Positions 1 through 62,857 are shown, numbered from the stretch's first letter. The stretch is DNA of 64,000 bases from an uncultured Bacteroidales bacterium (GCA_964626855.1 CAZVKJ010000013.1:5482-69481), one strand, 5' to 3'. The notes: generated from the letters alone by a model not told the origin. Numbers and translations are program-made.

Positions 1-1
1 T

Positions 2-12077: not shown

Positions 12078-12151
12078 TGGTCCCACCTGGACTTGAACCA
12101 GGGACCACCTGATTATGAGTCAGGTGCTCTAACCAACTGAGCTATAGGACC
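12078..12151 (-). tRNA. tRNA with CAT anticodon, most likely tRNA-Ile2 (lysidine-modified); CCA not encoded
   Basis: Reverse complement GGTCCTATAGCTCAGTTGGTTAGAGCACCTGACTCATAATCAGGTGGTCCCTGGTTCAAGTCCAGGTGGGACCA folds as a cloverleaf. It resembles Ile2 tRNAs and lacks the initiator GGG/CCC anticodon stem. Confidence 0.93.
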
Positions 12152-25200: not shown

Positions 25201-27071
25201 CTGATACCGACATTCTGCGGGTCGGTATAGGTTACCGTCAACGGATCAGGCACAGAAAAATAATTCATCACTGATGGGTCACCCATGAGATGGTATTCTT
25301 CCCAGTAATACTGCTTCATTGTTGAGGAACTTTGTTCAACAGCAAGTAAGCCGGCATACCTCATCTGATCGTTTGTATAATACCAGGAAGCTTTAGGCTG
25401 GCCTTTATCATGAAAAATGCAGTCGTAGGCTCCTAAAGCGCTTGCATTATATGTAGGATTTGAGGTTATATTACTGCGCGCACCCACACCCCAATAATAA
25501 TCTTCATCCCAATATGAATAGTTTGATGCTCCTATATAGCCTACTGCCCCTTTATTGGAGTAAGCACGTAACAGAGCTTCACCGAAGCATTCCGAATCAT
25601 AAAAGGTATTTGACTGGCAGCAATTTCCTACTAATAATCCATATTTATTGTTATTGTACATGCTTGCAATCTGTGATGTAGAAAATCCCGGTGTGCCCCA
25701 GCCTGAGGAACCGCAATGTGCGGTATAATTTGCATATCCCACACCTTTGTATAAATTTGCCCTCATTGCAGCTCCCGCAATGGCTTCGGTATTATTGGGA
25801 TCCAGATAAGTATAGGAATATATTCCATGTGCCGCATTAAAATAATTATTGGTACCATAATTCAGCTGTCCGTTACCATATGTGGCATCATAACCATAAC
25901 TATCATAGCCGGCAACCATTACCACGGTATCCATATATGTGGCCGATGGCATCTGGTACTTTTCATAGAGCAGTGTTTTGTTTACCTGGTTGGTCACGTG
26001 GGTGGTTGTTGTTGCGCTGAAACGCCCGTAATACATATCGGGAATATAATCACTGCCGCTATCGAACGTAAATGTATAAAGATCGGTCATAGTTGTATTA
26101 TCATCAATGCCCGTATTTGTTCCAATTTGTGCAACATCACCCACAATAAGTGCGAAGGTAGGTGCAGGGTCCAAAGCTGTGCCGGCAGTATAAAGCCCTT
26201 GCAAATAGGTTTTCACAGTGGCAGCCGTTTGTGCTGATGTATAATACTTTTCAATTACATTAAATCCTTTCTGACGTTTCCAGTAAACGAATGGCTGCAA
26301 TGCTACCTGAAAGGTAGTGAGCGATACGATCACATATTTTATGGGATACTTTGAAAGGGCATCTTTTGCTAAAGGTTCCGTATGGTTTATAAGAGCGTTT
26401 AATGAAGATTCAAAATAGGGAGAATAATATTTTTCCTTTATTTGTTCTGTAAGCTGAATATCGGGATGCTTAAAAACAACCTCAAAAACGAGGTCGTTAT
26501 ACACTTTTAATATATTTGTCACCGGATTGTAACGGAATGGCGCTATGGTCAGGTTTGCCATACGCACTCCCCTCATAATGCCCGACATGGCAACGCTTAC
26601 TATATCGTTAGTATTATATGCATTTATCTGGTAAAATGCCTGGTCATAATAAAATGGTATTTCATTTACGTTGGCGCTTTTTGAAATGCTTGGCTGCGAA
26701 GGCATGATCTTTTGAACAATGCCCCGGCCAGCTAAATCAATCGTTTGCTCATTATAGCTGATAATATTCACCTGCATCTCCGCGCCATAAGGCACTTCGA
26801 TCAGCTTATTCAACACAGGCAATTCCGGCCTGCCGTTATTATATATTTTTGTAAAGCCGGGGCAGCCAATTTCAATAAAATTACCCGAAACAGTCGATAC
26901 ATTTATTGTATTTATCTTGTCAAAAGAAGTTTTAACTTTTAATCTATACGAACTCTTTTCAAGTAAATTAAAGTCACTTTTTGCAGAGCTCAATTTGATC
27001 TCCACCTGTGCATAGGTGTTCACAACCATTATGCAAAACAGTAGAGCAAGGATTTTTGGAATTTTTTTCAT
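22212..27071 (-). CDS. C25 (gingipain-like) cysteine peptidase with propeptide, C25_C, CARDB, two PKD domains, an Ig-like module, a dockerin-like/cohesin-like region and a T9SS CTD
   Basis: GRPELP propeptide; LIVGD; PDMYYGRFSA; NYTAHC (catalytic His) and GNCCQS (catalytic Cys); YHLMGDP; two SY.W.FGDG PKD motifs; YPNP...LPTGIYTF CTD. Confidence 0.92.
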   Translation of the reverse strand: MKKIPKILALLFCIMVVNTYAQVEIKLSSAKSDFNLLEKSSYRLKVKTSFDKINTINVSTVSGNFIEIGCPGFTKIYNNGRPELPVLNKLIEVPYGAEMQVNIISYNEQTIDLAGRGIVQKIMPSQPSISKSANVNEIPFYYDQAFYQINAYNTNDIVSVAMSGIMRGVRMANLTIAPFRYNPVTNILKVYNDLVFEVVFKHPDIQLTEQIKEKYYSPYFESSLNALINHTEPLAKDALSKYPIKYVIVSLTTFQVALQPFVYWKRQKGFNVIEKYYTSAQTAATVKTYLQGLYTAGTALDPAPTFALIVGDVAQIGTNTGIDDNTTMTDLYTFTFDSGSDYIPDMYYGRFSATTTTHVTNQVNKTLLYEKYQMPSATYMDTVVMVAGYDSYGYDATYGNGQLNYGTNNYFNAAHGIYSYTYLDPNNTEAIAGAAMRANLYKGVGYANYTAHCGSSGWGTPGFSTSQIASMYNNNKYGLLVGNCCQSNTFYDSECFGEALLRAYSNKGAVGYIGASNYSYWDEDYYWGVGARSNITSNPTYNASALGAYDCIFHDKGQPKASWYYTNDQMRYAGLLAVEQSSSTMKQYYWEEYHLMGDPSVMNYFSVPDPLTVTYTDPQNVGISSLVVTTEEDAYVAISHAGVLLDAELAPAGGVTTLNFSAITQADTLDVVVTKQNKRPYIGLLHVIAASIPLDAQMVSINSPEASYNCSNISVAPQVTVRNSGTTTLTNFRITYQITGGSQQIYNWSGSLASGQSININLPAITVPSGASTFTAVTSLPNGLADQNQTNDSKSVSIMAENLVVSADFTGSATQSCTTPLSVTFTNTSANATSYVWDFGDGNTSTDANPTHSYTALGTYNVVLTSSAGICGSDVETKNAYITVGSDIPVATDGSRCGTGTLTLNATASGTIHWYDLPVAGTDLGTGNTFTTPSLTATTTYYAGNNVSGPTQTVGPTNSTSGGSYSSSVYSLIFDCYTPVTLVSVAVNKQTAGSILIKLTNSGGTVLQSGTYAVPAGSSTVTLNWSVPTGTGLRLVGPSSTSMYRLSSATYPYTLSGLISITGCTTSNRYGPYYNWQIKTADCISARTPVTATILSEPVAAFTSSVASSTVNFTNTSTNATSYLWAFGDGSTSTDVNPGHTYATAGTYTVTLIADNGNCSDVTTQNVTIQAGINKYTISGKTRYAAKANTGTTGNYPTYNQVLYNIDQVVVILKSYPGGIELARDTSDALGSYQFNNISSGTYLLSYDKYSADTMQWGNDENAIDVSLIKFLVNTDTLIDPSRSFGKKYKKAADVDNNMSVNAIDIARIKAKIGSPATASRNFPKGNWVALDTLVTVAGADVNANLKTICYADYNASNSKYLNDVNTWGQGKSLPTDIVVVSDEYITSADPTYFEVPLRINSKSDDFSTMGLELSYPQGFRLVSAYMPRADHKNGTVKINPTLDEIIAENDDLLVTDENNIVRVVYATINSYNVAANDELIRLGFRSDSEMKTGEQDFNLSGTGVIANKFGEESGNYLVMPKVFIQGNNTDAGFEFTGYPNPVKDEVTIAYNLPEAGSAELKVYNSIGELVDVVVNRYETKGSHTVLLNTKGLPTGIYTFRLEFIGKETSKSLVLKMIK

Positions 27072-31932: not shown

Positions 31933-33141
31933 ATGAAAAAATTTTTATCCTTGTTATTATTAGCCGTTTGTATAACCACGGCCTTAAATGCTCAGTCATA
32001 CACATGGATACAAAAAGCAAGTCTGCCTGCAGATGGGCGATACGGGGCTGTTTGTTTTACCATTGGAAGCAAGGCATATGTTTGTTGTGGTGTTGGAAAT
32101 GGGAATTTAAATCTGCAGGATTTATGGGAATACGACAACATCTCTAACACATGGACACAAAAGTCAAACGTTCCCGGTGTTTCCAGAAGAAGAACTAATA
32201 TTGAAGTTGTAAATGGAATCGCCTATATGATGGGCGGAGTTCATTGGAATGGGGGCTCTGGAAACAATACTATTTTAAAAGATGTCTGGGCATACAATCC
32301 CACTACGGATTCCTGGACTCAAAAAAACAATTTGCCTTTTGGCCCATTAGGTTCAGCGGCTAGTTCTACAGTAAATGATAAAATATATTTTGGCATCGGA
32401 TTAGACTCCAATCAAAATCAACAAAATATCTGGTGGATGTACAATCCACTCACTGATACATGGACACAAAAAGCAAGTTTCCCCGGCACCTCCAGATTAC
32501 ATGGCGTTAGCTTTAAAAGTAAAGACAGGATTTTCTTTGGATTAGGAATAACAACGTCATATACTCTTTTCGCTGATTTATGGCTATATCAAATATCCAC
32601 GGATACATGGGTTCAAAAATCTGATTTTCCTGGCGGCGCTCGTCAGGATGCAGCTAGCTTTTATGTCGGAGACAATGGTTATATTGTGGGAGGATATTCC
32701 ACGCAATTAAAAAAAGATGTTTGGGAGTATAATTACTTTACTGACACCTGGACAAATGTGGGCGATTTTACTGGTGGATACAGGCGGGACAATACAGGGT
32801 TCTGTATCGGCGATAAAGGATATTGTGGTTTTGGGGTTTCAAATATTTCGGATTATAATTTTGATTTGTGGGAATTTACAGCTTTTACGGATATTAATGA
32901 AAACAATTGCAAATCTGAAGCTTTCATGATTTTTCCTAATCCTGCTTCTTCGATTCTTAATATTCAAAGCAATAACATTCAAAAGATCGAAATATATGAT
33001 GTTTCAGGAAAACAAATTTTGAATGAAAATAAATCCGGTAAGAGTGTTATTTTGAATATAGATAATTATTCAACCGGTATTTATTTCGTTAAAATATATA
33101 CAACTGAAGAAACCTTTATCACAAAACTTTTCAAGAAATAA
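31933..33141 (+). CDS. Kelch-repeat beta-propeller protein with T9SS CTD (copy 1)
   Basis: Signal peptide; six Kelch blades (W.Y.P.TD.WTQK..FPG..R); FPNPA...STGIYFVKI CTD. Confidence 0.9.
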   Translation: MKKFLSLLLLAVCITTALNAQSYTWIQKASLPADGRYGAVCFTIGSKAYVCCGVGNGNLNLQDLWEYDNISNTWTQKSNVPGVSRRRTNIEVVNGIAYMMGGVHWNGGSGNNTILKDVWAYNPTTDSWTQKNNLPFGPLGSAASSTVNDKIYFGIGLDSNQNQQNIWWMYNPLTDTWTQKASFPGTSRLHGVSFKSKDRIFFGLGITTSYTLFADLWLYQISTDTWVQKSDFPGGARQDAASFYVGDNGYIVGGYSTQLKKDVWEYNYFTDTWTNVGDFTGGYRRDNTGFCIGDKGYCGFGVSNISDYNFDLWEFTAFTDINENNCKSEAFMIFPNPASSILNIQSNNIQKIEIYDVSGKQILNENKSGKSVILNIDNYSTGIYFVKIYTTEETFITKLFKK

Positions 33142-34969: not shown

Positions 34970-36184
34970 ATGAAATATATAATCCTGTTTTGCGCATCCT
35001 TTTTATTCATCACAGCGCCTCTCTTTGCACAAGTTTACGGATGGACTCAAAAAGCAAGTTTGCCGGCACCCGGACGTTATGGCGCAGTTAGTTTTGTGAT
35101 CGGCAACAATGCATATGTTTGCAGCGGAACAGGTGACGGTGTCCTTAATTTTCAGGATATGTGGGCCTATGATAAGTTAACTGATACCTGGACTCAAAAA
35201 GCAAATATGCCCGGCACATCCAGAAGAAGAACCAATATTGAAGTAGTAAACGGTATTGCTTATATGATGGGAGGCGTTCACTGGCATGGCGGATCGGGCA
35301 ATAATACCATATTAAGCGATTTTTGGTCGTACGATCCTGCTACTGATGCATGGACACAGAAAGCAGACCTCCCGTTTGGCGCTTTAGGCGGAGGAATAAG
35401 TTTCGCAATAGGTAATGAAATATATTTCGGTATCGGGTTGGATCAATATCAGGTTCAACAAAACATCTGGTGGATGTATAATGCCTCCACGGACTCATGG
35501 ACACAGAAAACAAGTTTTCCGGGAAACACAAGAATACACGGAGTCAGTTTCAGGAGTAAGGACAGGTTTTTCTTTGGATTAGGCATAACGACAGGCTCCG
35601 TGCTATGTGCTGACCTATGGCTGTATAACGCTTCCACGGATACCTGGATTCAAAAAGCTGATTTCCCGGGCGGCGCACGTTATTCCGCGGCAAGTTTTTA
35701 TGTGGGTGATGATGGTTACATCATGGGTGGATATGCTGGGCAACTGAAAAAAGATGTTTGGCAATACAATTATGCAGGTGACAATTGGAACTGGATTGGA
35801 GATTATACGGCCGGATATAGAGATGACAATACGGGTTTTAGCATTACTAACACAGGTTATTGTGGTTTTGGCATATCAAATACCACAAATTTCAACACTG
35901 ATTTGTGGGAATTTACACCAATCAGCACAGGTATTAACGAAAATAATTCAAGATTGGCCAACATCCTTGTGTATCCTAACCCAGCACTTACCTTTATAAA
36001 TATTAAATCAAACGACATCCAAAAAATCGAAATTTATGAGATTTCAGGTAAAAAGATATTGGATGAAAATTATAAAAATGAAACTAATATTTGTTTGAAT
36101 ATTAATTCATTTCCTAAGGGTTTGTACTTTATTAAAGTATATACGGAGGCAGGGATAAAAGTCTCTAAATCTATCAAATACTGA
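34970..36184 (+). CDS. Kelch-repeat beta-propeller protein with T9SS CTD (copy 2)
   Basis: Collinear paralog of 31933..33141 (about 70% identical over the first 120 mature residues, counted by eye); YPNPA...PKGLYFIKV CTD. Confidence 0.9.
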   Translation: MKYIILFCASFLFITAPLFAQVYGWTQKASLPAPGRYGAVSFVIGNNAYVCSGTGDGVLNFQDMWAYDKLTDTWTQKANMPGTSRRRTNIEVVNGIAYMMGGVHWHGGSGNNTILSDFWSYDPATDAWTQKADLPFGALGGGISFAIGNEIYFGIGLDQYQVQQNIWWMYNASTDSWTQKTSFPGNTRIHGVSFRSKDRFFFGLGITTGSVLCADLWLYNASTDTWIQKADFPGGARYSAASFYVGDDGYIMGGYAGQLKKDVWQYNYAGDNWNWIGDYTAGYRDDNTGFSITNTGYCGFGISNTTNFNTDLWEFTPISTGINENNSRLANILVYPNPALTFINIKSNDIQKIEIYEISGKKILDENYKNETNICLNINSFPKGLYFIKVYTEAGIKVSKSIKY

Positions 36185-49754: not shown

Positions 49755-50885
49755 ATGAAATTTAGAATAAAAACATCAGATCCGGCCTCATCGGCACGTA
49801 CCGGTATTATTGAGACTGATCATGGCGCTATTGAAACGCCGATTTTTATGCCTGTTGGCACAGCAGGAAGCGTTAAAGCCATTCATCAGAAAGACCTGAA
49901 AGATGATATTAATGCTGAAATAATATTGGGCAATACTTACCATTTATATTTACGTCCGGGACTTGATGTTTTACAAAATGCCGGCGGGTTGCATAATTTT
50001 AACGGATGGAACAAGCCCATACTTACCGACAGCGGAGGTTACCAGGTTTATTCCTTAAAAACCATCCGGAAAATAAAAGAAGACGGGGTGGTTTTTCAAT
50101 CGCATATTGATGGATCAAAACACATATTTACCCCTGAGAACAATGTTGACATACAACGCAGAATAGGCGCAGATATCACTATGGCATTTGACGAATGTAC
50201 GCCCTATCCTTGTGAATACAGGTATGCAAAAACGTCGATGGAAATGACTCACAAATGGCTTGCCCGTTGTGTAAAACGCTTTAACGAAACCGAACCTTTA
50301 TATGGTTACCATCAAACATTTTTCCCAATAGTTCAGGGAAGTACATTCAGGGACCTTCGTAAAATATCGGCTGAAACTGTTTCATCCTATGGACTTGAAG
50401 GTAATGCTATTGGCGGATTATCGGTTGGTGAACCCGTCGAAGAAATGTATGAAATTACAGAACTGGTATGCTCAATTCTGCCAAAAGATAAGCCCAGGTA
50501 CCTTATGGGAGTGGGCACTCCGGCAAACATCCTCGAATCCATTGCGCTCGGCGTTGACATGTTCGATTGTGTAATGCCAACCCGTAACGGCCGCAACGGA
50601 TGGTTGTTCACCAAAAACGGACGTATAAATATCCGTAACGAAAAATGGAAAAATAATTTCTCGCCCGTCGACGAAGACGGAAATTCTTTTGTTGATGTTC
50701 AATACAGCCGTGCATACCTCCGGCATCTCTTTGTCTCCAATGAAATTCTGGCTTCGATGATAGCAAGCCAGCATAATCTCGCATTTTATTTGTGGCTCGT
50801 ACGTGAAGCAAGAAAACACATTCATGAAGGAGATTTTTTGCGCTGGAAAAATGAGATGGTTCCAATTCTTGACAAAAAATTATAA
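49755..50885 (+). CDS. tgt: tRNA-guanine(34) transglycosylase
   Basis: TPIFMPVGT, NTYHL, TDSGGYQV, GGLSVGE, YLMGVG, DMFDCVMPTRNGR. Confidence 0.97.
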   Translation: MKFRIKTSDPASSARTGIIETDHGAIETPIFMPVGTAGSVKAIHQKDLKDDINAEIILGNTYHLYLRPGLDVLQNAGGLHNFNGWNKPILTDSGGYQVYSLKTIRKIKEDGVVFQSHIDGSKHIFTPENNVDIQRRIGADITMAFDECTPYPCEYRYAKTSMEMTHKWLARCVKRFNETEPLYGYHQTFFPIVQGSTFRDLRKISAETVSSYGLEGNAIGGLSVGEPVEEMYEITELVCSILPKDKPRYLMGVGTPANILESIALGVDMFDCVMPTRNGRNGWLFTKNGRINIRNEKWKNNFSPVDEDGNSFVDVQYSRAYLRHLFVSNEILASMIASQHNLAFYLWLVREARKHIHEGDFLRWKNEMVPILDKKL

Positions 50886-51188
50886 ATATCACCCTGTTTC
50901 TTTTTACCTCAATAACTCTATTCCAAAACCGGAATTTTAATTAAAAGTCTTGAATAAAACAGAGTTTTTTTTTGGTCAGTGCATTTAAAATTGTACAAAA
51001 CCGGATTTATTCTTTCTGATACATTTTCCCCCTTACGTCATTGATTTTATTTATTTCATGTTGCAATTTTACATTTGTTAAAATAAATAATATCCCCGGA
51101 TTTTTAAAATATTTTTATCTAAATATTCAAACGGCTGTTTTTTTTACTATATTGCATATCGATATTATTAAAAATTACCTTGTAAATA

Positions 51189-53192
51189 TTGGGCACTTAT
51201 AAAAAAATAGTTTTGTTTGTCATAAAAAAATATGCAAAAACGCTGTTGTTCTCCCTTTTGATAATTAATTCAATAAAAGGGTACACACAGTCGGACACTA
51301 CTGATATTTATGATTTAACGCTATCCGAATTATCAAAATTAAAAATAGCTTCTGTCTCAAAGGCTATGCAAAATATCAGTGAAATTCCTTCAACCATATA
51401 CATCATCACTTCTGCAGAGATCAGGGAAAAAGGATATTTTACTTTAGAGGAAGCGCTGTCGGACTTGCCCGGGTTTCAGTTCAGAAATACATTGGGACAA
51501 AATAGCTATGTTTTTCAACGCGGAATTCCAAATCAAAACAACCTGACTTTATTACTTATTGACGGAGTCCAGGTTAATGAGCTAAATTCAGGCGGATTTT
51601 ATGGCGGAGGCCAGTACAACCTGTCAAACGTTGACCATATAGAAGTATTATACGGGCCGGCATCAGTGACTTATGGGACCAATGCTGTATCTGGAATTAT
51701 AAACATCGTTACAAAAAATTGTTTGGAAAAAAAATTAGAACTAAATTCCTGGATTGGAAATTTCAGTACATCAGGCAGTGACTTTTCATATAGCAACGTT
51801 AATAAGAAAAAAACACTCGGTTTTTCAGTTGCCGGGATGTTTAAGAAATCAGATAAGGCTAACTTAAAAAATGATGCCGGGGATAACAACTGGACAGACC
51901 TGATGGACAATTATGAAAATGACTACACGCTTGATATGAAATCGCAGTATAAAGAATTTACATGGGGCATAAATTATATTTTAAAACAGACTTCCCTGGC
52001 TACAAATAACAAATCCATCGGGACTATTTATAAAGATTACGGAACTCAATGGAATATCCAGTTTATTAACAGCTATGGTAAATACCAAAAACAGTTTTCA
52101 AAGAAATTAAGCTTATCGGCTGTTTTATACAACCGAAACGCTACCGTGCTTAGCAACACAGTTTACAATGTGGTTGACACAGCCCAGGTTGGATACTATA
52201 GGCCAAACAACCAGATGGGACTGGAAAATGTATTAAATTATACTCCTGGTAAAATTTTCTCCTTAACAAGCGGCATAACATTAAAATTTGAACAACTTTC
52301 CAAACAAGCCTCATTTTCGCATAGTGATTCACCTGAGATCAAGCCTCCCCGGCCTTCCAACCCTGTTATGGTCAATGGCTATCTGCTGAGTGTCTTTGCC
52401 GAACCACGGCTTACTCTATTTAAAAATCTGTATATATCGGGGGGTCTACGCTACGATCAAAGCAGTGTTTATGAAGAGGTATTTACTCCCTGTGCCGGGA
52501 TAAGCTACCATTTAAAAAAACAGATTATACGAGTTTCTTATTCTGAAGCATTCCGATCTCCCCAACCCTGGGACTTCACCGATGGGCTAGGCAACCCCTC
52601 ACTGAAACCCGAAAAAATGAAATCGCTTGAACTGGCATTTTCTTTTTCAATTATTGATAAAATTAAAATTGAAGTAACCGGATATAAAAACTATCTGATT
52701 AATTCCATCTCAAAAGAAATTCTTGATACCATAGGCCACTACATATGGGCGAATAGTGGAAAAATAAACACCTATGGTTTTGAAGTATTTTTTAAGTTTG
52801 AAACTGGAAAGTTTAAGTCTGCAATAAATTATACATATACCCAAAGTGAAAATGTTCCGGGTAATTTTATTAACGAGATCAGCAAACATTGTGGAAATGC
52901 AAGTCTTACATATGCGTTCAACGATAACTTAAAAATCAACCTCCGCGCCAACTATGTAGGAAAACGGAAAAATCCAAAATTGATAACAGTATCCGATAGC
53001 TATTTTGTAGACCCGTATATTGTATTACAGGGAGCAATTTCTTTTATTAACTATAAAGGATTGACAGCCCAGATTGCCGTGAAAAATTTATTAAACGCCA
53101 AATATTATCACACATCGAACCGTGACGTTTCCCGATACCGGCAACCGCAGGTAACAATTTTTTTTACAATAGGATATTCAATATTTAAATAA
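51189..53192 (+). CDS. TonB-dependent receptor (plug + barrel, no N-terminal extension domain)
   Basis: DIYDLTLSEL...IPSTIYIITS.EI, LLLIDG, IEVLYGPASVTYGTNAVSGIINIVTK, GNPSLKPEK, KNLLN; start codon uncertain (TTG). Confidence 0.88.
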   Translation: MGTYKKIVLFVIKKYAKTLLFSLLIINSIKGYTQSDTTDIYDLTLSELSKLKIASVSKAMQNISEIPSTIYIITSAEIREKGYFTLEEALSDLPGFQFRNTLGQNSYVFQRGIPNQNNLTLLLIDGVQVNELNSGGFYGGGQYNLSNVDHIEVLYGPASVTYGTNAVSGIINIVTKNCLEKKLELNSWIGNFSTSGSDFSYSNVNKKKTLGFSVAGMFKKSDKANLKNDAGDNNWTDLMDNYENDYTLDMKSQYKEFTWGINYILKQTSLATNNKSIGTIYKDYGTQWNIQFINSYGKYQKQFSKKLSLSAVLYNRNATVLSNTVYNVVDTAQVGYYRPNNQMGLENVLNYTPGKIFSLTSGITLKFEQLSKQASFSHSDSPEIKPPRPSNPVMVNGYLLSVFAEPRLTLFKNLYISGGLRYDQSSVYEEVFTPCAGISYHLKKQIIRVSYSEAFRSPQPWDFTDGLGNPSLKPEKMKSLELAFSFSIIDKIKIEVTGYKNYLINSISKEILDTIGHYIWANSGKINTYGFEVFFKFETGKFKSAINYTYTQSENVPGNFINEISKHCGNASLTYAFNDNLKINLRANYVGKRKNPKLITVSDSYFVDPYIVLQGAISFINYKGLTAQIAVKNLLNAKYYHTSNRDVSRYRQPQVTIFFTIGYSIFK

Positions 53193-53280
53193 TTTTTTGA
53201 TTACAATTTTTCGGATAACTTATGTACATTGCAGACATTAAACCAATAAAACCCACTATAAACAATTGAATTACTTTTCG

Positions 53281-55548
53281 ATGAAGAAGTTTGTTTTTGT
53301 CGTATTTGTTTTTTTCTGCAGTTTCATTTTTTGCCATCTTAAATGTTACGCACAACAGATTCAGCGTGATATTGCCATAAGCGCTTATATATATAATTTT
53401 GCTAAAAATGTAAAATGGCAAAATGAGGAAAACATAAAGGAGTTTCACTTTTTGGTTATTGGTGATGACGAAAACATCGTTAAAGAACTTACGACATTAT
53501 CACGTAAAAAATCTCTCCGGAAAAAGCCAATATCAGTAACATCTTCCAGGGTATTTAAAGATGCCGAAGACATTCAACTAATTTTTGTCACAAAAGGGAA
53601 AGAAGAAACCCTGGAAAAAATTTTCGATAAAATCAAAGGCAAAAATACCCTGGTGATAAGCGATAGCTACAAAAACAAAGCTGTCGTCATGATAAATTTT
53701 TTCGATTCGGAAGACGGCAATCTTCTTTTTGAGATAAACCAGGCAAACATTTTAAATCAGAATATTGAAATTTTGCCCGATATGGTTTTGCTTGGCGGCT
53801 CAGTGGTAGACGTTGCGGCATTATATTTTGAAGGGCAAAAAACATTACGTGAAATTCAGAAAGAAATTGGAACACTTTACAGCAACCTTGCCATGCTTGA
53901 AAAAAACATTGATAATAAAACCAGTGAAATTTTATCAAGTAAAGACAGCCTTAATATGCAGACTCAAAAGATACGGGAGCAGCAAGTAATATCAGATGAA
54001 CAGAGGTTGTTAATAGCACAGCAAAAAAAAGAATTACAGCTTCAGATACAAAAATTATTGTTACAACAAAAAATATTTAATGTACAGTCGCAGGAATTAT
54101 TAAAGCAAAAGGCCGAACTCGAAAAAGGAACTAAAGCATTAGTAGATCAAAAAAATGAAATTTCAAAGCAAAAACTGGAAATTGGAAGGCAAAAATCCGC
54201 GATAGCATTACAAACACATTCGATTTATTTGCAAAATATGACAATGCAGCGCCAGCGATACATGTTGCTTTTGTCGGGTATTATTATAATTCTTGTTATT
54301 GTTATCTTATTCACCATATATTATGCTTACCGGAATAAAAAACGACTGAATGTGAATCTTGAAAAAAGAGTTCTTGAACGGACTTTAGATCTGAACAAAT
54401 CAAATAAGCAACTTAAAATTGAACTTTCCGAGAGAAAAATGGCCGAAAAAGCATTACTAAAATCAGAAGAACGGTTCCGCATTACACTTGATAATATGCT
54501 CGAAGGAGGCCAGATCATTGGTAAAGACTGGCGCTACATTTATGTCAATGATGCAGTAGCCATTCAGGGTAACCATTCAAAGGAAAGCCTGATCGGCCGC
54601 ACCATGATGGAAGTTTATCCCGGCATTGAAAATACAGAATTGTTTTCCGTGTTAAAAAAATGCCTGAATGAACAAACATCTGAACATTTGATCAACGAAT
54701 TCAAGTACGGAGATGGAACATCTGCGTGGTTTGAACTAAGTATCCAACCGGTTCCTGAAGGGCTATTTATTCTATCATTTGATATCACAGAACGAAAATT
54801 CATTGAAGACAAAATCAACAAACTTAATGAAGAACTTGAAGAAAAAGTTAACCTGCGTACTGTTCAGCTTGAAAATGCAAATAAAGAACTTGAAGCTTTT
54901 GCTTATTCTGTTTCGCATGACCTGAGAGCACCATTGCGGGCGATAAATGGATTTACGAAAATATTAACGGAAGATTATTCTGACAAGATTGATGAGGAGG
55001 GCCAGCGGGTATGCGGTATCATTCAAAGTGAAGCCATCCGGATGGGACAGCTTATTGATGATTTGCTCGCATTTTCGAGACTTAGCCGATCATCATTGAA
55101 TCTGACAGCAACCGACATGAAAGATATTGTTAAATCCGTTTATAAGGAGGTGCACGAACAATACTCCGGCCACAAAATCAAAATTCATATTGCCAATCTC
55201 TGCGCGGCCAATTCTGACCCAAGCCTGATCAGGCAGGTATGGGTTAATTTAATATCAAATGCATTAAAATTTTCGTCTAAAAAAGAAATTATAGAAATCA
55301 ATATTGGTTGCTATGAAAATCCAGATGAATTTGTTTATTTTGTAAAAGATAACGGTGCCGGTTTTGATATGCAATACGCACATAAACTATTCGGTGTTTT
55401 TCAAAGGCTTCACGGCAATAATGAATTCTATGGAACAGGTGTGGGATTAGCCATTGTGCAGCGTATTATTTCAAGACACGGTGGCCGTGTTTGGGCCGAG
55501 GGAGAAATTGATAAAGGTGCAACTTTTTATTTTTCATTACCTAAATAA
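53281..55548 (+). CDS. YfiR/HmsC (DUF4154)-domain sensor histidine kinase: YfiR, long coiled coil, TM, PAS, HisKA, HATPase
   Basis: AYIYNFAKNVKW and MINF...LFEINQ YfiR motifs; TM RYMLLLSGII...IYYAY; LEAFAYSVSHDLRAPLR; DNGAGF; GTGVGL. Confidence 0.88.
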   Translation: MKKFVFVVFVFFCSFIFCHLKCYAQQIQRDIAISAYIYNFAKNVKWQNEENIKEFHFLVIGDDENIVKELTTLSRKKSLRKKPISVTSSRVFKDAEDIQLIFVTKGKEETLEKIFDKIKGKNTLVISDSYKNKAVVMINFFDSEDGNLLFEINQANILNQNIEILPDMVLLGGSVVDVAALYFEGQKTLREIQKEIGTLYSNLAMLEKNIDNKTSEILSSKDSLNMQTQKIREQQVISDEQRLLIAQQKKELQLQIQKLLLQQKIFNVQSQELLKQKAELEKGTKALVDQKNEISKQKLEIGRQKSAIALQTHSIYLQNMTMQRQRYMLLLSGIIIILVIVILFTIYYAYRNKKRLNVNLEKRVLERTLDLNKSNKQLKIELSERKMAEKALLKSEERFRITLDNMLEGGQIIGKDWRYIYVNDAVAIQGNHSKESLIGRTMMEVYPGIENTELFSVLKKCLNEQTSEHLINEFKYGDGTSAWFELSIQPVPEGLFILSFDITERKFIEDKINKLNEELEEKVNLRTVQLENANKELEAFAYSVSHDLRAPLRAINGFTKILTEDYSDKIDEEGQRVCGIIQSEAIRMGQLIDDLLAFSRLSRSSLNLTATDMKDIVKSVYKEVHEQYSGHKIKIHIANLCAANSDPSLIRQVWVNLISNALKFSSKKEIIEINIGCYENPDEFVYFVKDNGAGFDMQYAHKLFGVFQRLHGNNEFYGTGVGLAIVQRIISRHGGRVWAEGEIDKGATFYFSLPK

Positions 55549-55554
55549 TAAATT

Positions 55555-55998
55555 ATGTACAAAAATATTGTTGATATTTTGCTTATTGAAGACAATGACA
55601 ATGATTCTGAACTAACGATCCGCACTCTTAAAAAACACCATATAGCTAATAGTATATATGTTGTTAAGGATGGTGAAGAAGCAATAAATTATCTATACGG
55701 GAAAGGAAGTTTTTCCGGAATTAAAATACAATTACCGAAGGTCATCCTGCTCGATATAAAACTCCCAAAAATCAATGGCCTGGAAGTTTTAAAAACCATT
55801 AAACAGGATGAAAAACTGAAAGGCATTCCCGTTGTAATGCTTACCTCATCAAGCCAGGATCCCGATATAAAAACAGCTTATGCTTTAGGGGCCAACAGCT
55901 ATGTGGTCAAGCCTGTAAATATTGACAATTTTACCGCTACAATTAATAATCTTGGTATGTATTGGCTGGTTGTCAACCAACCACCTAAATTAGATTAA
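55555..55998 (+). CDS. Single-domain response regulator (Rcp1-like)
   Basis: ILLIEDN, ILLDIKLPKING, MLTSS, AYALGANSYVVKPV. Confidence 0.92.
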   Translation: MYKNIVDILLIEDNDNDSELTIRTLKKHHIANSIYVVKDGEEAINYLYGKGSFSGIKIQLPKVILLDIKLPKINGLEVLKTIKQDEKLKGIPVVMLTSSSQDPDIKTAYALGANSYVVKPVNIDNFTATINNLGMYWLVVNQPPKLD

Positions 55999-56007
55999 AA
56001 AAAAAAT

Positions 56008-59000
56008 ATGAACCCTTACAATAAAATCTTAATCGTTGAAGATAATTTATCTGATGCAGAACTTGCAAAAAGAGAAATCCGGAAAGTATTGCCATCAGCT
56101 GAATTTGCCATAGTATTCACCAGAGAATCCTTTATTGAATCGCTGAAAACTTTTCAGCCTGACATCATCGTTTCTGATTTCAGTATGCCCAACTTTGACG
56201 GGATGGCGGTAATTACCATTGCTAAAGAAACGGCGCCCCTGGTTCCTGTAATAATTTACACGGGATCATTAAATGAAGAAACGGCGGCAGAAACAGTAAA
56301 AGTTGGCGCTGTTGATTATGTCTTAAAAGACAATACCGTCAGGCTTCGGCAAGCCATTCTTCAGGCTATTGAAAAAAAGCAGTTATGGCATGAACGGCTT
56401 GCTGCTCAAGAAAAATTAAAAGCAAGCGAAGAACGCTTCAGGATACTTTTTGAACAGGCTGCCGATGGTATTATGCAGATTGATACTAAGGGCAGGATTA
56501 TCGGGGCTAACACCAGTGCCGCAGAAATTACCGGATTCAATAATGAAGAATTATTAAAGAAGAACATTTCAGAACTTTATGATGCCGAATCATTAAAAAA
56601 TGATCCTATCAGGTATGATTTGCTGAATAATGGAGCAGTACTCTTCAAAGAACGAACCGTTATCCGAAAGGATGGCACCGCCTGTGAAGTTGAAATGCAC
56701 TCTAAAATTCTTCCGGATAAAACCTACCAGACAATTTTCAGGGATGTCACACGCAGAAAAAAAGCCGAAAAAAAATTAAGAGAAAGTGAAGAACGCTTAA
56801 GCACCCTGATCCAGTTACTGCCTGTGGGAATAGCTATTCACAGTGAAGGCAAAATTGTTTTTGCCAATAAAGCTGCAGAAAAAATTATGGAAACCCCTCC
56901 TGAAATGGAAATGGTCGGGCTGAGCATTTATAATTTTATTCATAAGGATTACAGAGAAATCGCCCTTCAAAGAATCAGGCAAATCATGTCGGAAAACAAA
57001 CAATCTGTACAGATTGAAGAAATTTTTGTAACACATACAGGCCGGCCTATTTCTGTTGAGGTTACTACCCTGCCAATGCCCTACCGGGGAATACCTGCCC
57101 TGCTTACTGTTTTTAATGATATTACCGCCCGAAAAGAAGCCGAAGTGCTCTTAAAAGAGTCCGAAGCCAAGTACAGGATGATCTTTGAAAATACAGGAAC
57201 AGCCTCGGTGATTATTGAAGAAGACAAAACGATTTCTTTAGTCAATTCAAAGTTTTTAGAGCTTTCAGGATTACCAAAAAAGGAAGTGGAAAACAAAAGA
57301 AAATGGACAGATTTTGTTATTCAGGAAGATCTGGACATGATGGTCAAAATGCATGACCTTAGAAGAAAAGACCCGTCACAAGCCGCGAGATCTTATGAAT
57401 TCAGATTTATTGACAGCAAGAAAGAGATAAAAAATGTATTACTTTTTATTGATATGGTTCCGGGGACACAGAAAAGCCTGGCCTCCCTGCTCGATTTTAC
57501 CGACCGCAAAAAAGCTGAAGAAGAACTTGAGAAAAACCGTCTGATGCTGCGAAGCATGATTGATTCTATGCCCATGTGGATCTGTGCCGTGGATAAAGAC
57601 ATCAAATATATTATTGCCAATCAACATTATTCAACAACATTCCAAATACCTCTTGATAAAATTGAAAATCATTTTGCACATGAAATTTTTCCCGAACCTC
57701 ACTTTGAACTCCATAAAAATCTAATCAACGAATGCCTTAAAACAGGAAAAACTATTGAATTTTACGACAATATCGAATTTGAAAAAGGAATAATAACAAA
57801 CACCTACGGTAATTATAACCCTTTTTATGATCATCTGGGAAATATCATGGGTGTTACAGGAGCTGCCATTGATATTACCAGGCAAAAGCAAGCCGAAGAA
57901 GAAGTCAGAAATAGCAGGTTGTTATTGAGAACCATGATCGACTCACTTCCAATGTGGCTCTCAGCCCTTGATGTTAATGGCAATTATTTTATTGCAAATA
58001 AATATTATGAAGAAACTTTTAAAATTTCTCTTGACCTGGTGGAGAATCATAATTTCAAAGAATTTTTCCCTGAAAAGCAATATATTGTTCATAAATCCCT
58101 GTTTGATAAGTGTGTTACATCAGGCAAACCCGTTGAAGTTATAGATGAGTTTGAATTTGAAAAAGAAAATATAATGCATATTTTTGGCAGCTATACACCT
58201 TTGTATGATCCGTCGGGTAAAATGTTCGGTGTTAGTGCAGCCATTATTGATGTAAGTAAGCAAAAACAAGCAGAAAATTTACTTAAAGAAAGTGAAAAAC
58301 AATTCCGCACAACTTTTGAAAATGCTCCGATCGGCATGTGCCTCAGTTTTGTTTCAGGGAAATTTATCCAGGTAAATCAGGCTTTTTGTGAGATGCTTGG
58401 TTATTCACAGGAAGAATTGTTAGCAATGAATTTCCTTGATTTTACGCATCCTGATGACATGGAATTCAGTAAGGAATTTATCAAAAATATTATTCATAAA
58501 AAAAATCAAAATTCATCCGTCGAAAAAAGATATGTCAAAAAAGACGGCTCCATAATTTGGGCAATAACCTCTGCTTCACTGTTAAGAGATATAAATAATG
58601 AGCCAAGATTTTTTATTGTACAAGTAGTTAATATTACTGAACAAAAACTGGCAGAACAAAAACTTCAGGAGGCAAAACACCAACTCGAAGTGGTTTTTGA
58701 CAATGGCCCTGATGCCATCTTATTAACCCGTATTGAAGACGGTTTTTACATTGATTCAAATAAGACGTTCACCAAATATACCGGTTATACTCCGGAAGAT
58801 TTAAGGGGAAAATCGACACTCGACATTGACATTTGGGATAATCCCAAAGACAGGGATATACTTTTGCATGAAGTAAAAACCAAAGGATTCTGCCATAATC
58901 TTCAGCTTTTAGTTAAAAACAAAGATGGGTCGTTACGCGATATTGAAATGTCCACAGAAGTTATTTTCTTAAAAGGCATTCCATGCCTGCTCAGTATTTC

Positions 59001-59790
59001 AAGAGACATTGCTGAACGGAAAAAAATGGAAGCTTTGCTGCTAAAGCAGAATAAGGAACTTCACGAACTAAACGCCACTAAAGACAGGTTTTTCTCAATA
59101 ATTGCACATGATTTAAAGGATCCTCATAATGCCATCCTTGGCTTTTCGGATATTCTTAATGGCAGCTATGATATACTTTCCGAACAGGACAAAAAAAATT
59201 ATATAAAAAATATTTATCTTTCATCCCAGTCACTTGCCCGCCTGCTGCAAAATTTACTTGAATGGGCAAATTCACAGACCGGTAAAATGGCTTATCAGCC
59301 CGAACAGTTGGATATTGTAAAAATCATAAAAGAAACCATTGATATATTACAATACCAGGCTAAGATAAAACAAATAAGGTTGATTTCCGACACCGAGCCG
59401 TCACTCATGGTATTTGCAGATGCCAATATGACTAAAACCGTATTACGTAATCTTGTTTCAAACGCAATAAAATTCACACACCGCAACGGTTTTGTAAAAA
59501 TCTCTTCTCTTATTGTAAAAAACAAGAAAGCTCATACAACTTACATTGAAATTTCCGTGACGGACAATGGCGTTGGCATCAGTAAAGAAAATCTTGATAA
59601 ATTATTCAAACTCGATTACAAAATAAAAACCCAGGGTACCGAAGACGAAATGGGCAGCGGTCTTGGCCTTATACTTTGCAAAGAACTTGTTGAAAAAAAC
59701 AAAGGATATATGAATATCACCAGTGAGGAAAACTCCGGCAGCACCGTAACCTTTGCCTTACCTGAAAAAATTTTGAACCATGAGGTATAA
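56008..59790 (+). CDS. Cytoplasmic hybrid histidine kinase: REC, 7 PAS, HisKA, HATPase
   Basis: N-terminal REC (IVSDFSMP); seven PAS/PAC units ending in DIT..K-type motifs; IAHDLKDP; NLVSNAIKF; DNGVG; GSGLGL. Confidence 0.92.
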   Translation: MNPYNKILIVEDNLSDAELAKREIRKVLPSAEFAIVFTRESFIESLKTFQPDIIVSDFSMPNFDGMAVITIAKETAPLVPVIIYTGSLNEETAAETVKVGAVDYVLKDNTVRLRQAILQAIEKKQLWHERLAAQEKLKASEERFRILFEQAADGIMQIDTKGRIIGANTSAAEITGFNNEELLKKNISELYDAESLKNDPIRYDLLNNGAVLFKERTVIRKDGTACEVEMHSKILPDKTYQTIFRDVTRRKKAEKKLRESEERLSTLIQLLPVGIAIHSEGKIVFANKAAEKIMETPPEMEMVGLSIYNFIHKDYREIALQRIRQIMSENKQSVQIEEIFVTHTGRPISVEVTTLPMPYRGIPALLTVFNDITARKEAEVLLKESEAKYRMIFENTGTASVIIEEDKTISLVNSKFLELSGLPKKEVENKRKWTDFVIQEDLDMMVKMHDLRRKDPSQAARSYEFRFIDSKKEIKNVLLFIDMVPGTQKSLASLLDFTDRKKAEEELEKNRLMLRSMIDSMPMWICAVDKDIKYIIANQHYSTTFQIPLDKIENHFAHEIFPEPHFELHKNLINECLKTGKTIEFYDNIEFEKGIITNTYGNYNPFYDHLGNIMGVTGAAIDITRQKQAEEEVRNSRLLLRTMIDSLPMWLSALDVNGNYFIANKYYEETFKISLDLVENHNFKEFFPEKQYIVHKSLFDKCVTSGKPVEVIDEFEFEKENIMHIFGSYTPLYDPSGKMFGVSAAIIDVSKQKQAENLLKESEKQFRTTFENAPIGMCLSFVSGKFIQVNQAFCEMLGYSQEELLAMNFLDFTHPDDMEFSKEFIKNIIHKKNQNSSVEKRYVKKDGSIIWAITSASLLRDINNEPRFFIVQVVNITEQKLAEQKLQEAKHQLEVVFDNGPDAILLTRIEDGFYIDSNKTFTKYTGYTPEDLRGKSTLDIDIWDNPKDRDILLHEVKTKGFCHNLQLLVKNKDGSLRDIEMSTEVIFLKGIPCLLSISRDIAERKKMEALLLKQNKELHELNATKDRFFSIIAHDLKDPHNAILGFSDILNGSYDILSEQDKKNYIKNIYLSSQSLARLLQNLLEWANSQTGKMAYQPEQLDIVKIIKETIDILQYQAKIKQIRLISDTEPSLMVFADANMTKTVLRNLVSNAIKFTHRNGFVKISSLIVKNKKAHTTYIEISVTDNGVGISKENLDKLFKLDYKIKTQGTEDEMGSGLGLILCKELVEKNKGYMNITSEENSGSTVTFALPEKILNHEV

Positions 59791-62700
59791 GTTTTCAAAC
59801 AAAAAAGAATTAGAACTTTTGCTTGATGCATTGAAAAACAACTTAACCAAAGGGCACCTGTTTATTGACGATTCTGATGAGAACAATGGCTCAATTATTT
59901 CTGATCAAAATCTGCCCGGGGAAGTGAAAAAATTCTTCAATGATAATGCTATTAAGCCTTACAAAATTCTTAATGACTTACCCGTACCCTTCTTCATAAA
60001 AGATAAAAACTGCGGCTGGTTTTACATGAATAAAGCCTTCTGTGATTTTTTCGAATTAAATCCGTCTGATATTTATAGAAAAACCAGCCATGCAATTTTC
60101 CCAAAAAACAAGGCTGATTTGTTTTATAAACAGGATTGTAATGTTCTGCAAACAGGAAAAGAGTCTTCTCTTGAAATGGAAATTACAACCCCGGCAGGAA
60201 AAACCAGGTTCATTCAGGCTACCAAATCCTTGTTTAACGATATAAACAATATTCCCTATATAATTGGAACCTTTAATGAAATAACAGGATTTAAAGATAT
60301 TGAATCTGCCATTCAACTCGAAAAGACAGAACTGGAATCACAGGTTAAATCACGCACGGCACTGTTAAGTGCTACTGTTGAAAAACTACGTGAAGAAATC
60401 CTCCAGCGGGAAAAAACCGAACAGGCATTAATCCAGGAAGAAGACAAATTCCGAAGCGTTATTGAACAGGCGACAGATGGTATTGTAATTAATGACAATA
60501 AAGGCCGGATAATTGAATGGAACCAAAGTATGTTTGAGTTGACCGGGGTTAAAAAAGAACAGGCACTGGGAAAAAACAACTGGGATATAGAGTTTCAATT
60601 AATGAAACCCGAAAAAAAAACCGACGATTATTATAAGAACCTGCAAACTAACCTTTTAAAAACCCTTGGAAATGAATATATCCCTAAAAAAGCCCAAAAC
60701 TTTGAGGGTGAAATAATCAGAACAGATGGAAAACGAAAGTTTGTCAATATAACTACATTCCTGATTAAAACATCCAATTCTGTCTATCTTGGCCGAATCG
60801 CCAGAGATGTAAGCGAACAAAAAAAATCTGTCTTAGCCATCCAGCGTTCCGAAGCACAATACCGGGCTATTTTCGAAAGCTTCAGCCTCGCAATCCTGAT
60901 CATAAACCCTGAAAATTATAAAATTATGGCTGCCAATAAAAAAGCAGCTGACATATATAATTATCCTATTGACCAATTTAATGGCATGCTCCTGGAACAA
61001 ATAACAAAAGATTTTATCCTGGATGCCGGCCAGATTGAAATGATCTATAAAAAAAACAATCCAAAAGATCTTGAAACAATTCATCTTAGCCGTAATGGCG
61101 AAGAAATAAACATGATGGTCAACGGCTCTGTGGTTGAATATGGCGGTATTAAAGCCGTAATGACTTTCAACAGAAATATTACCGATCTTAAACAATTAGA
61201 GAAAGCCCGTGAAACCGTTTACAAAATCTCACAGCTTACACATACCGTCACTAACATTGATGATTTGTATAAGTCCATTCATATCATCATCAATGAAATA
61301 CTTCCGGCTAAAAACTTTTATATCGCCCTATATGACGAAACAAAGGATATGGTTTTTTTCCCATATTACGTTGATGAAAAAGACGCTGCCCCGCAAGCAC
61401 GAAGGCTCAGAAGAGGCCTTACCGAATATGTATTGAGGCATGGCAAACCTGTTTTAACAAGCCCGACCTTATTACGTCAGCTTGAAATGTCAGGCGAAAT
61501 AGAAGTTATCGGGTCCGATACTGACATATGGCTTGGTGCCCCATTGATCACCCACAATAAAGTGATCGGTGTCGTTGCCGTTCAAAGCTATTCTGAAGCT
61601 ACCATTTTTACCGAAACCGAAAAAGACATGCTTGTTTATGCTTCTGAACAGATTGCTCATCAGATTTACAAAAGGCAGGCTGAAGAAGAAATACTGCAGG
61701 GTAAGGCAAAAGCTGAAGAATCAGACCGACTGAAAACATCACTAATTGCGAATATGAACCATGACCTGAGAACTCCCATGACAGGTGTCCTCGGCTTTGC
61801 CTCGCTTCTTAAAAACCGTGTCAAGGATCCTGAATCTTTGAATATGATTGACACCATCATTGAGTCGGGTAATAAACTGATGTCAACAATTACTTCCATT
61901 CTACAGTTTTCGCAGATTGAAGCGAGCCAAAAACCTGTTGATTATATTACGGGCAGCCTGAGTAAATATGCTGAAATATCCATAAATCAATTTGAAAACA
62001 GGGCAAAACAAAAAAACTTGTATATCATCAGGCAATGCAATGATCCGGTATTCGCCACATTTAATGAAAATTACCTGATACAGATTCTCAATAATTTAAT
62101 AAGTAATGCGGTATCATATACGGAAAAGGGAGGCATGACTGTTAAAACCGGATATACCAGTTATCTTGAAAATGACTATGCTTTTATAAGCGTGGAAGAC
62201 ACAGGTATCGGGATTTCCGAAAATAATTTCAATTTAATTTTCCAGGAATTCAGGCAGGTAAGTGAAGGCTTGAACCGTAAATATGAAGGCAGCGGATTGG
62301 GATTATCACTCAGTAAAAAAATGGCCGAATCAATGGGCGGAAAAATATTAGTTGAAAGCGCAATTGGAAAAGGTTCGGTTTTTACCTTACTCTTACCTGT
62401 TTCATCTCCGCAATTATCCAGAAAACCCGAAAACGACTACAGCACATCTTACTATAAACTTAACGGGGCAATTAAAACCCGGTATAAAGTTCTCGTTGTT
62501 GAAGACAACAGAATCAACGGGGAATTAATCAGTGCCATGCTGAAGCAGGATTACGAAGTTGATATTGCCAAAACAGGTATTCTTGCTATCGAACTCGTAA
62601 AAAGAGGAAATTACGATATTATTCTGATGGATATCAACCTCGGTGTGGGAATGACCGGAATTCAGGCAGCAAAAGAAATCCACAGATTGAAAGGCGAATT

Positions 62701-62857
62701 ACCCATTGTTGCCATGACAGCCTACTCAACAGAAAAAGAAATTGATCAGATCATGAAGCATTCGTTTATTGGATTTGTCCTGAAACCTATCGACAAAACT
62801 GCTCTTTTTAAAGTTATGGAAAAATCAATAATAAAAAAAACTAACTCCGGCAAATAA
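59780..62857 (+). CDS. Cytoplasmic hybrid histidine kinase: 3 PAS, GAF, HisKA, HATPase, REC
   Basis: [11 protein letters not shown]...WLGAPL...[28 protein letters not shown]-terminal REC ILMDINL. Confidence 0.92.

Follow-up and report, generated by a model that had tools for sequence, protein, structure and literature searches.

A TonB-dependent receptor adjoining a YfiR-like domain fused, through a long heptad stalk, to a histidine kinase: a candidate trans-envelope signalling module in an uncultured Bacteroidales bacterium

A 64,000-nucleotide stretch of the genome of an uncultured Bacteroidales bacterium (GCA_964626855.1 CAZVKJ010000013.1:5482-69481, hereafter the window) encodes at positions 51,189 to 55,998 a TonB-dependent receptor, a histidine kinase whose YfiR-like ectodomain is carried on a long heptad stalk, and a stand-alone receiver. 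An earlier note, made from the sequence of the window alone, took these genes for a trans-envelope signalling system in which the YfiR-like head, lifted to the outer membrane, reads the receptor and passes ligand occupancy down the stalk as down a rod. The locus is the fused form of a receptor / YfiR-like / sensor-kinase module. Its domains, their fold, the continuous helix, the gene order and the bounded stalk length come directly from the sequences and models, as do two wirings of one receptor subfamily; the fused module is real and conserved, and its function is predicted from sequence and models. Of the earlier reading, the YfiR-like head, the bounded stalk length and, in this clade, the conserved linkage to the receptor stand, whereas a simple rigid push-rod has become less likely and the module proves wider than its pairing with the receptor.

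Program calls of open reading frames (ORFs) return the receptor, kinase and receiver genes with the boundaries first proposed, all on the + strand, with the following parts.

51189..53192, + strand: TonB-dependent receptor, 667 aa, with BtuB-like plug and barrel, without STN
51303..51347, + strand: conserved N-terminal peptide of the receptor, aa 39-53, predicted to form two short helices and to lead into the expected TonB-box position
53266-55548, + strand: kinase gene, likely start ATG 53281
53281..53352, + strand: predicted cleaved signal peptide, aa 6-29, from hydropathy, cleavage inferred between C-Y-A and Q
53383..53793, + strand: YfiR/HmsC-like (DUF4154) head, aa 40-176, from Pfam and AF2/Foldseek
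53794..53811, + strand: conserved Gly-Gly hinge between head and stalk, within low-confidence aa 176-184 (pLDDT <50)
53812..54258, + strand: periplasmic stalk of ~21 heptads, aa 183-331, with Leu/Ile in position a and Gln in most d positions
54262..54327, + strand: single transmembrane helix, ~aa 333-354, hydropathy peak 3.25
54514..55548, + strand: cytoplasmic PAS_4 (aa 417-511), HisKA and HATPase_c, from Pfam
55555..55998, + strand: stand-alone receiver, 147 aa, with acidic pocket, D67, T97, K119

The succession of parts first read in the kinase (signal peptide, YfiR-like head, heptad run of ~150 residues, one transmembrane helix, PAS, kinase core, then the receiver) is borne out by Pfam matches, hydropathy and the AlphaFold2 (AF2) model. 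The head, said to be YfiR-like, matches DUF4154 at E 1e-20 (74.8 bits against a cut-off of 24.9), and its 12 top Foldseek matches are YfiR crystal structures (E ~1e-6), the best against the P. aeruginosa structures having E 8e-7 and a target TM-score of 0.75. Residues E163, F151 and I169 of YfiR map onto head positions E156, I143 and I162, E163 being the partner-binding Glu of YfiR in the structural reports that give its YfiB- and YfiN-binding residues (PMC4655355, PMC4887326). Of 102 fused heads, which have no CHASE8 partner in cis, 84 nonetheless retain the equivalent Glu (E156), as do 41 of 42 soluble heads (three of the 42 are cut off). The Gln just past the predicted cleavage site is nearly invariant among relatives, and a small residue plus Gln precedes the head in 167 of 178. 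On the cytoplasmic side the sequence features of a classical HisKA kinase and receiver are all present, with H551, N, G1 and G2 boxes at 661, 695 and 723, and the receiver Asp/Thr/Lys triad. Kinases of this kind are generally dimeric and we take this one to be so.

The rod itself is unbroken, as the earlier note had it, but the note missed the Gly-Gly hinge at its junction with the head, conserved as G177 in 91/102 and G178 in 95/102 fused heads. The stalk contains no proline, and the AF2 model shows one continuous helix from aa 183 through the membrane segment, mostly at a predicted local confidence (pLDDT) above 90. In one heptad column 19 of 20 positions are hydrophobic, where 10,000 shuffles never gave more than 15. 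Gln predominates at the second core position, and for this reason a Fourier test at 3.5 residues did no better than shuffles, of which 333 in 1000 scored as high. A helix rises ~0.15 nm per residue, so that 149 residues would span about 22 nm, as first estimated.

Stalk length, measured from a conserved Tyr at the stalk top to the membrane in 178 non-redundant relatives, has a median of 141 residues with a 5-95% range of 129-151, or 19-23 nm at the same rise, and falls on two adjacent values modulo 7 in 145 of the 178. Whether two heads are 70% or only 10-20% identical, their stalks differ by a median of 6-7 residues, as expected of stabilising selection and not of a random walk. A second sample agrees, 116 of 126 complete cluster representatives having stalks of 125-160 (24 of 150 were dropped as lacking a membrane helix, mostly apparent fragments), and length is constrained, though not fixed. 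Proline occurs in 3/178 stalks and a single unbroken heptad register runs through 173/178. The Bacteroidota O-glycosylation motif, reported to mark exported protein parts (PMC8729774), occurs in the window stalk as D-S-L at aa 227 and is 3-4 times as frequent in stalks as in shuffles that keep the register (113 vs 33 and 56 vs 15); Glu and Asn control motifs are not enriched, and the O-glycosylation motif is depleted in cytoplasmic parts, a distribution that supports a periplasmic stalk. The stalk would offer a sequence-encoded ruler of periplasm width.

Linkage was surveyed from the receptor side by a metagenome scan with a receptor alignment, in which the best 80 of 230 confirmed loci were analysed (64 receptor clusters at 90% identity). 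With 19 loci set aside for having <450 nt downstream of the receptor, a YfiR-like gene directly follows the receptor in 59 of the remaining 61, so that the proposed linkage is conserved in this subfamily; the 61 comprise 37 fused stalk kinases, 18 soluble YfiR-like genes, four cut-off YfiR genes and two with neither (L159, L189). One of the latter (L159:5574-7571) is a close receptor relative with intact peptide that stands alone among housekeeping genes. The kinases behind soluble copies match NF053592 (YfiN-like) best in 10/10 tested and carry the YfiN-type sensor CHASE8 + HAMP in 7/7. One receptor subfamily is thus wired two ways, through a soluble YfiR and a CHASE8 kinase or through a fused rod without CHASE8. 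In database homologs (120 of the kinase, 120 of the receptor) 27 contig sizes are common to both sets, two with consecutive locus tags; a single-protein search of genome contigs gave only two loci, and the fused form is uncommon phylum-wide, at 4 of 300 other genomes (E <=1e-25). Receptors with fused partners form one branch in a quick tree (Shimodaira-Hasegawa-like approximate likelihood ratio test, SH-aLRT, 98; root unreliable) and fused heads need two label changes, but the outgroup branches are very long and so settle neither the direction nor a single origin of the fusion.

Several loci vary on these layouts. The source genome has a second, split module (contig C159, L003, 4-2450), in which a CHASE8-HAMP-PAS kinase gene comes after a soluble YfiR-like gene and the contig ends where the preceding gene would be; this is the genome's only CHASE8 match, none lying in the window operon. 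At L199:5631-7226 and L088:2918-4543 a soluble YfiR-like gene is followed by a methyl-accepting chemotaxis protein in place of a kinase, that of L199 standing behind two peptide-bearing receptors. The fused kinase appears as two overlapping ORFs past the membrane helix in L036 (4973-7218) and L123, probably through a frameshift, and P0241 and P0242 have three and two tandem YfiR-like heads ahead of the stalk start, both seemingly cut off.

The receptor was described as having neither an STN extension nor a SusD partner, and it matches the Pfam Plug and TonB barrel above cut-off with no STN or carboxypeptidase-like domain, the next gene being the kinase and not SusD. Its AF2 model (mean pLDDT 85, predicted template-modelling score 0.88) has BtuB and FoxA as best fold matches, BtuB as top match being no evidence for B12 as ligand, and its best barrel-wide NCBIfam matches, including the TOL_0244 family NF053590, are all under cut-off. 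The short N-terminal segment to which the earlier note drew attention is strongly conserved across 120 receptor homologs (L48 and K58 in 120/120, Y41 in 118/120) and aligns with NF053590 from model position 1. AF2 gives this peptide a pLDDT of 36-55 and predicts a short strand where the TonB box, here putative, is expected; in TonB-dependent receptors the TonB box, expected here just behind the peptide, moves on ligand binding. With a 14-column matrix trained on 10 distant receptors only, the window receptor reaches 24.7 and none of the 31 other plug proteins in the genome exceeds 14.1, and 86 of 90 held-out receptors from YfiR-survey loci, mostly of one subfamily, score >=16.7, three of the four low scorers being cut or frameshifted. 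The peptide recurs in receptors only ~25-40% alike that adjoin fused or soluble YfiR genes. We infer from these sequences that it may be the docking site for the YfiR-like head, for which role it is likelier than the plug. In eight further loci (L074, L077, L078, L080, L081, L082, L084, L091) the receptor has an extended form of the peptide with repeated helices and directly adjoins a soluble YfiR-like gene, the vicinity giving no match to a kinase; L081 and L084 have tandem copies.

Peptide and head also co-occur across genomes. In 301 Bacteroidales-level genomes, surveyed with a 50-residue receptor N-terminal profile (at most 23 candidates scored per genome at first look), a strong match is found in 63, all 63 of which have DUF4154, vs 125/301 overall; without the 11 genomes that supplied training rows the count is 52/52, and at a loose threshold 86 of 99 matching genomes have DUF4154. 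One genome (G060; L200, L206, L217, L219, L228, L232) has at least 23 matches to the receptor profile vs 5 of DUF4154, the six loci fetched from it having no YfiR beside the receptor, and several others have 7-13 receptor matches each. Stalks measure 130-153 residues in peptide-bearing genomes (47 proteins), 136-145 in five with weak peptide matches, and 81-152 in peptide-less genomes (10 proteins), where the four shortest (81-95) all come from one family. Shorter stalks where the peptide is absent lie in the direction expected if constraint relaxes once the partner is lost, but this is a single lineage.

These data suggest a mechanism to which we give about even odds, in which the tethered head docks on the N-terminal peptide of the receptor and the state of the receptor changes kinase activity. 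The stalk of ~21 heptads would be likely to hold the YfiR-like head at the outer membrane, where the head is predicted to bind the conserved peptide. On the model of its relay between YfiB and YfiN, YfiR of the split form would shuttle between the receptor and the CHASE8 domain, and in the fused form the tether would take the place of shuttling. When a ligand binds or TonB engages, the peptide that adjoins the TonB box would be displaced, and heads would be captured or released; the geometry of the kinase dimer would be altered through stalk, membrane helix and PAS, and phosphate would then pass to the receiver and to two kinases encoded downstream. More broadly, though here the balance of our judgement is against it and we offer it only tentatively, environmental Bacteroidota may use a plug-and-play code written as a short peptide tag at the periplasmic end of many different TonB-dependent receptors (at least 23 in one genome). 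YfiR heads would recognise the tag; glycosylated rods as long as the periplasm is wide would keep these heads at the outer membrane and connect each of them directly to a kinase, phosphatase or cyclase, and surface receptors could in this way report as a set to the cytoplasm without sigma factor, anti-sigma factor or diffusible relay.

A number of observations weigh against this mechanism. The hinge is predicted to be flexible, which makes a simple rigid push-rod less likely and weakens mechanical coupling; the match to periplasm width rests on enterobacterial values, a search for measurements in these organisms having yielded none; and stalk outliers of 81-117 and 180-243 residues exist. Kinship and lifestyle confound the co-occurrence across genomes, and the profile behind it also takes in plug residues. 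Of 62 distant head-and-stalk loci, 45 lack a receptor in the flanking DNA retrieved, which for 33 of them extends at least 1 kb to either side, and 32 of 35 loci picked on the receptor peptide alone have no adjoining YfiR gene, three having one (12 further top-ranking loci had been left out as already known YfiR neighbours). Five genomes, picked because they had stalk-type or long-ORF YfiR matches but no peptide match, again yielded no peptide-bearing receptor when re-searched, and in one 94% complete genome (G042), which encodes at least five head-and-stalk proteins, none of 74 candidates matches the peptide. Distant loci without a receptor and peptide-bearing receptors without YfiR fit binding in trans, and also fit independence. 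The head-and-stalk module is wider than the receptor pairing, and many distant copies end in a SpoIIE phosphatase or adenylate cyclase (of 32 picked for having no HisKA match, 28 end in SpoIIE, three in adenylate/guanylate cyclase and one in HisKA_3). Three proteins that end in adenylate/guanylate cyclase (L061, L096, L104) include two with 88-residue stalks.

Genomes with stalk proteins but no peptide-bearing receptor would also fit a head that senses after import, the receptor being an ordinary transporter and the head binding an imported small molecule near the outer membrane with no protein contact. The receptor has a full plug and barrel, the source genome encodes TonB_C and ExbB, and YfiR resembles small-molecule-binding domains, binding vitamin B6 and Trp weakly in its YfiB pocket, although with reported affinities of 35-77 mM (PMC4887326). 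Such sensing leaves unexplained both the common peptide on otherwise dissimilar receptors beside YfiR genes and why a diffusible ligand should need a stalk of fixed length, and we consider it unlikely.

The tight bounds on stalk length, together with the presence of the peptide on many orphan receptors, would suit a head anchored constitutively on the receptor, the kinase reading intermembrane tension or distance and not ligand occupancy; E. coli Rcs signalling depends on intermembrane distance (PMC5736177) and YfiBNR is reported to respond to envelope stress. Yet where this receptor subfamily occurs in the split layout its YfiR is soluble and could not carry tension, and the peptide directly precedes the expected TonB box. 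A gauge of this kind seems quite unlikely.

It is also improbable, to a slightly greater degree, that the head senses alone or through some other outer-membrane partner, the receptor being only a co-inherited or co-regulated neighbour. The many distant loci with no receptor nearby, and the peptide-less genome rich in head-and-stalk proteins, are as this would predict. Adjacency in 59 of 61 loci is not, and even among the 62 distant loci a receptor lies within the fetched flanks in 17 and within 1 kb in 15, where the receptor density of the window genome would give ~5%. Redox sensing by disulfides, one form that independent sensing could take, was rejected, aa 29-180 of the window kinase being free of cysteine, as are the heads of 135 of the 178 relatives; and the shortest stalks all lie in peptide-less genomes, though within one family. 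A fold-back arrangement, in which the hydrophobic N-terminal segment stays on as a membrane anchor and the helix doubles back so that the head lies near the inner membrane, is very improbable, for while the AF2 model is of a monomer without membrane and the topology is a predicted one, the conserved small-residue + Gln cleavage pattern, the rarity of proline, the unbroken register and the continuous high-pLDDT helix all speak against it.

The gene set first described is real but left out two large co-oriented kinases immediately downstream, through both of which, to 62857, the operon likely extends.

56008..59790, + strand: REC - seven PAS - histidine kinase, 1260 aa, starting 9 nt past the receiver
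59780..62857, + strand: three PAS - GAF - histidine kinase - REC hybrid, 1025 aa, with an 11 nt overlap with the preceding gene

No DNA-binding output is seen among the five operon proteins. The neighbours of the YfiR-fusion kinase are tgt, the receptor, the receiver and the kinases; the operon contains no OmpA-like lipoprotein YfiB and no FecR-like anti-sigma gene, and the receptor gives no STN match. An extracytoplasmic function (ECF) sigma gene lies 2.7 kb upstream behind tgt and a glycosyltransferase, and was rejected as a partner, being on the opposite strand and the upstream genes differing in L001, L002, L035 and L036. A promoter and terminator scan of 50800-56100 found fewer sites than in shuffles, and an Rfam scan gave a single match, a tRNA at 12078-12151, with no riboswitch at gathering threshold before the receptor and hence no hint of the ligand. 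Short contig pieces identical to the receptor and kinase genes occur in two RNA runs (depth ~2-4); contigs cannot show transcription and these are not counted as expression. The source genome is 86% complete, and its closest matches and type IX secretion system (T9SS) sorting domains mark it as one of Bacteroidota. Elsewhere in the window are two Kelch-repeat proteins of similar size with T9SS sorting domains (31933-33141 and 34970-36184, with two opposite-strand genes between) and two further, large T9SS cargo proteins. One of these runs off the edge of the window and has beta-helix, Ig and MAM domains (1-8638; 2,768+ aa); the other is a C25 peptidase that also contains PKD domains (22212-27071; 1,619 aa).

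TonB-dependent receptors are known to signal mainly through anti-sigma factors, or indirectly after ligand import. Contact between such a receptor and the ectodomain of a kinase would add a third route of TonB-dependent receptor signalling. It would also supply a role for YfiR-like proteins outside YfiBNR, a very large family in which the fused-head profile finds 10,380 cluster representatives at E <=1e-10 and 760 at 1e-30, and for an unannotated receptor peptide found in 99 of the 301 genomes searched. The earlier statement that no characterised example was known holds for the fused form, on which our literature searches found no paper (subscription journals and bioRxiv supplements were not covered), but the split trio is already catalogued as NCBIfam models NF053590-NF053592.

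Among known systems, cell-surface signalling by FecA-FecR-FecI and its relatives is alike in that a TonB-dependent receptor would signal by an N-terminal extension to a single-pass inner-membrane protein, and differs in its STN domain and FecR, both absent here, and in that the output of the window system is a phosphorelay. RcsF-IgaA likewise achieves intermembrane transfer by a protein that reaches across a fixed distance and ends in a phosphorelay (PMC5736177), but the proteins are unrelated, with a flexible linker on an outer-membrane lipoprotein there and a helical rod on the kinase here. YfiBNR of P. aeruginosa and HmsCDE of Yersinia share with the window system the YfiR-fold periplasmic domain with its partner-binding Glu (PMC3375315, PMC4655355, PMC4887326), an outer-membrane partner encoded alongside and an inner-membrane signalling enzyme. 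Their YfiR is separate and soluble, whereas the window head is fused to stalk, membrane helix and kinase; the operon has no CHASE8/HAMP inner-membrane partner and no YfiB-type OmpA lipoprotein, the outer partner being a TonB-dependent receptor; and the disulfide cysteines of YfiR are absent from the head, the output being a histidine kinase. By analogy, then, the window system resembles a YfiBNR in which a different outer partner has been substituted and the relay has become part of the enzyme, and lacks four YfiBNR features for which it was tested. Kinase outputs were noted for YfiN homologs by Malone et al. (PMC3375315), where the main text and eight supplement files do not mention TonB.

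A further close relative is the NCBIfam trio of NF053590 (TOL_0244 receptor), NF053591 (TOL_0243 YfiR-like) and NF053592 (kinase near YfiR-like). TOL_0244 was induced at the proteome level on long alkanes (n-C28) and is 40% similar to OmpS of Alcanivorax dieselolei according to a paper citing the latter (PMC6304351), OmpS being a TonB-dependent receptor that citing papers describe as detecting its ligand and starting a signalling cascade (PMC6304351, PMC5174103). The trio and the window locus share the gene order receptor, YfiR-like, kinase, the receptor N-terminus and head are related, and close relatives of the window receptor occur in exactly that split layout. The window receptor scores 115 bits against the NF053590 cut-off of 645, and the head 61.9 bits against the NF053591 cut-off of 125, though NF053591 is its best family match. 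In the window YfiR and kinase are one protein, in which the stalk replaces the periplasmic sensor of NF053592.

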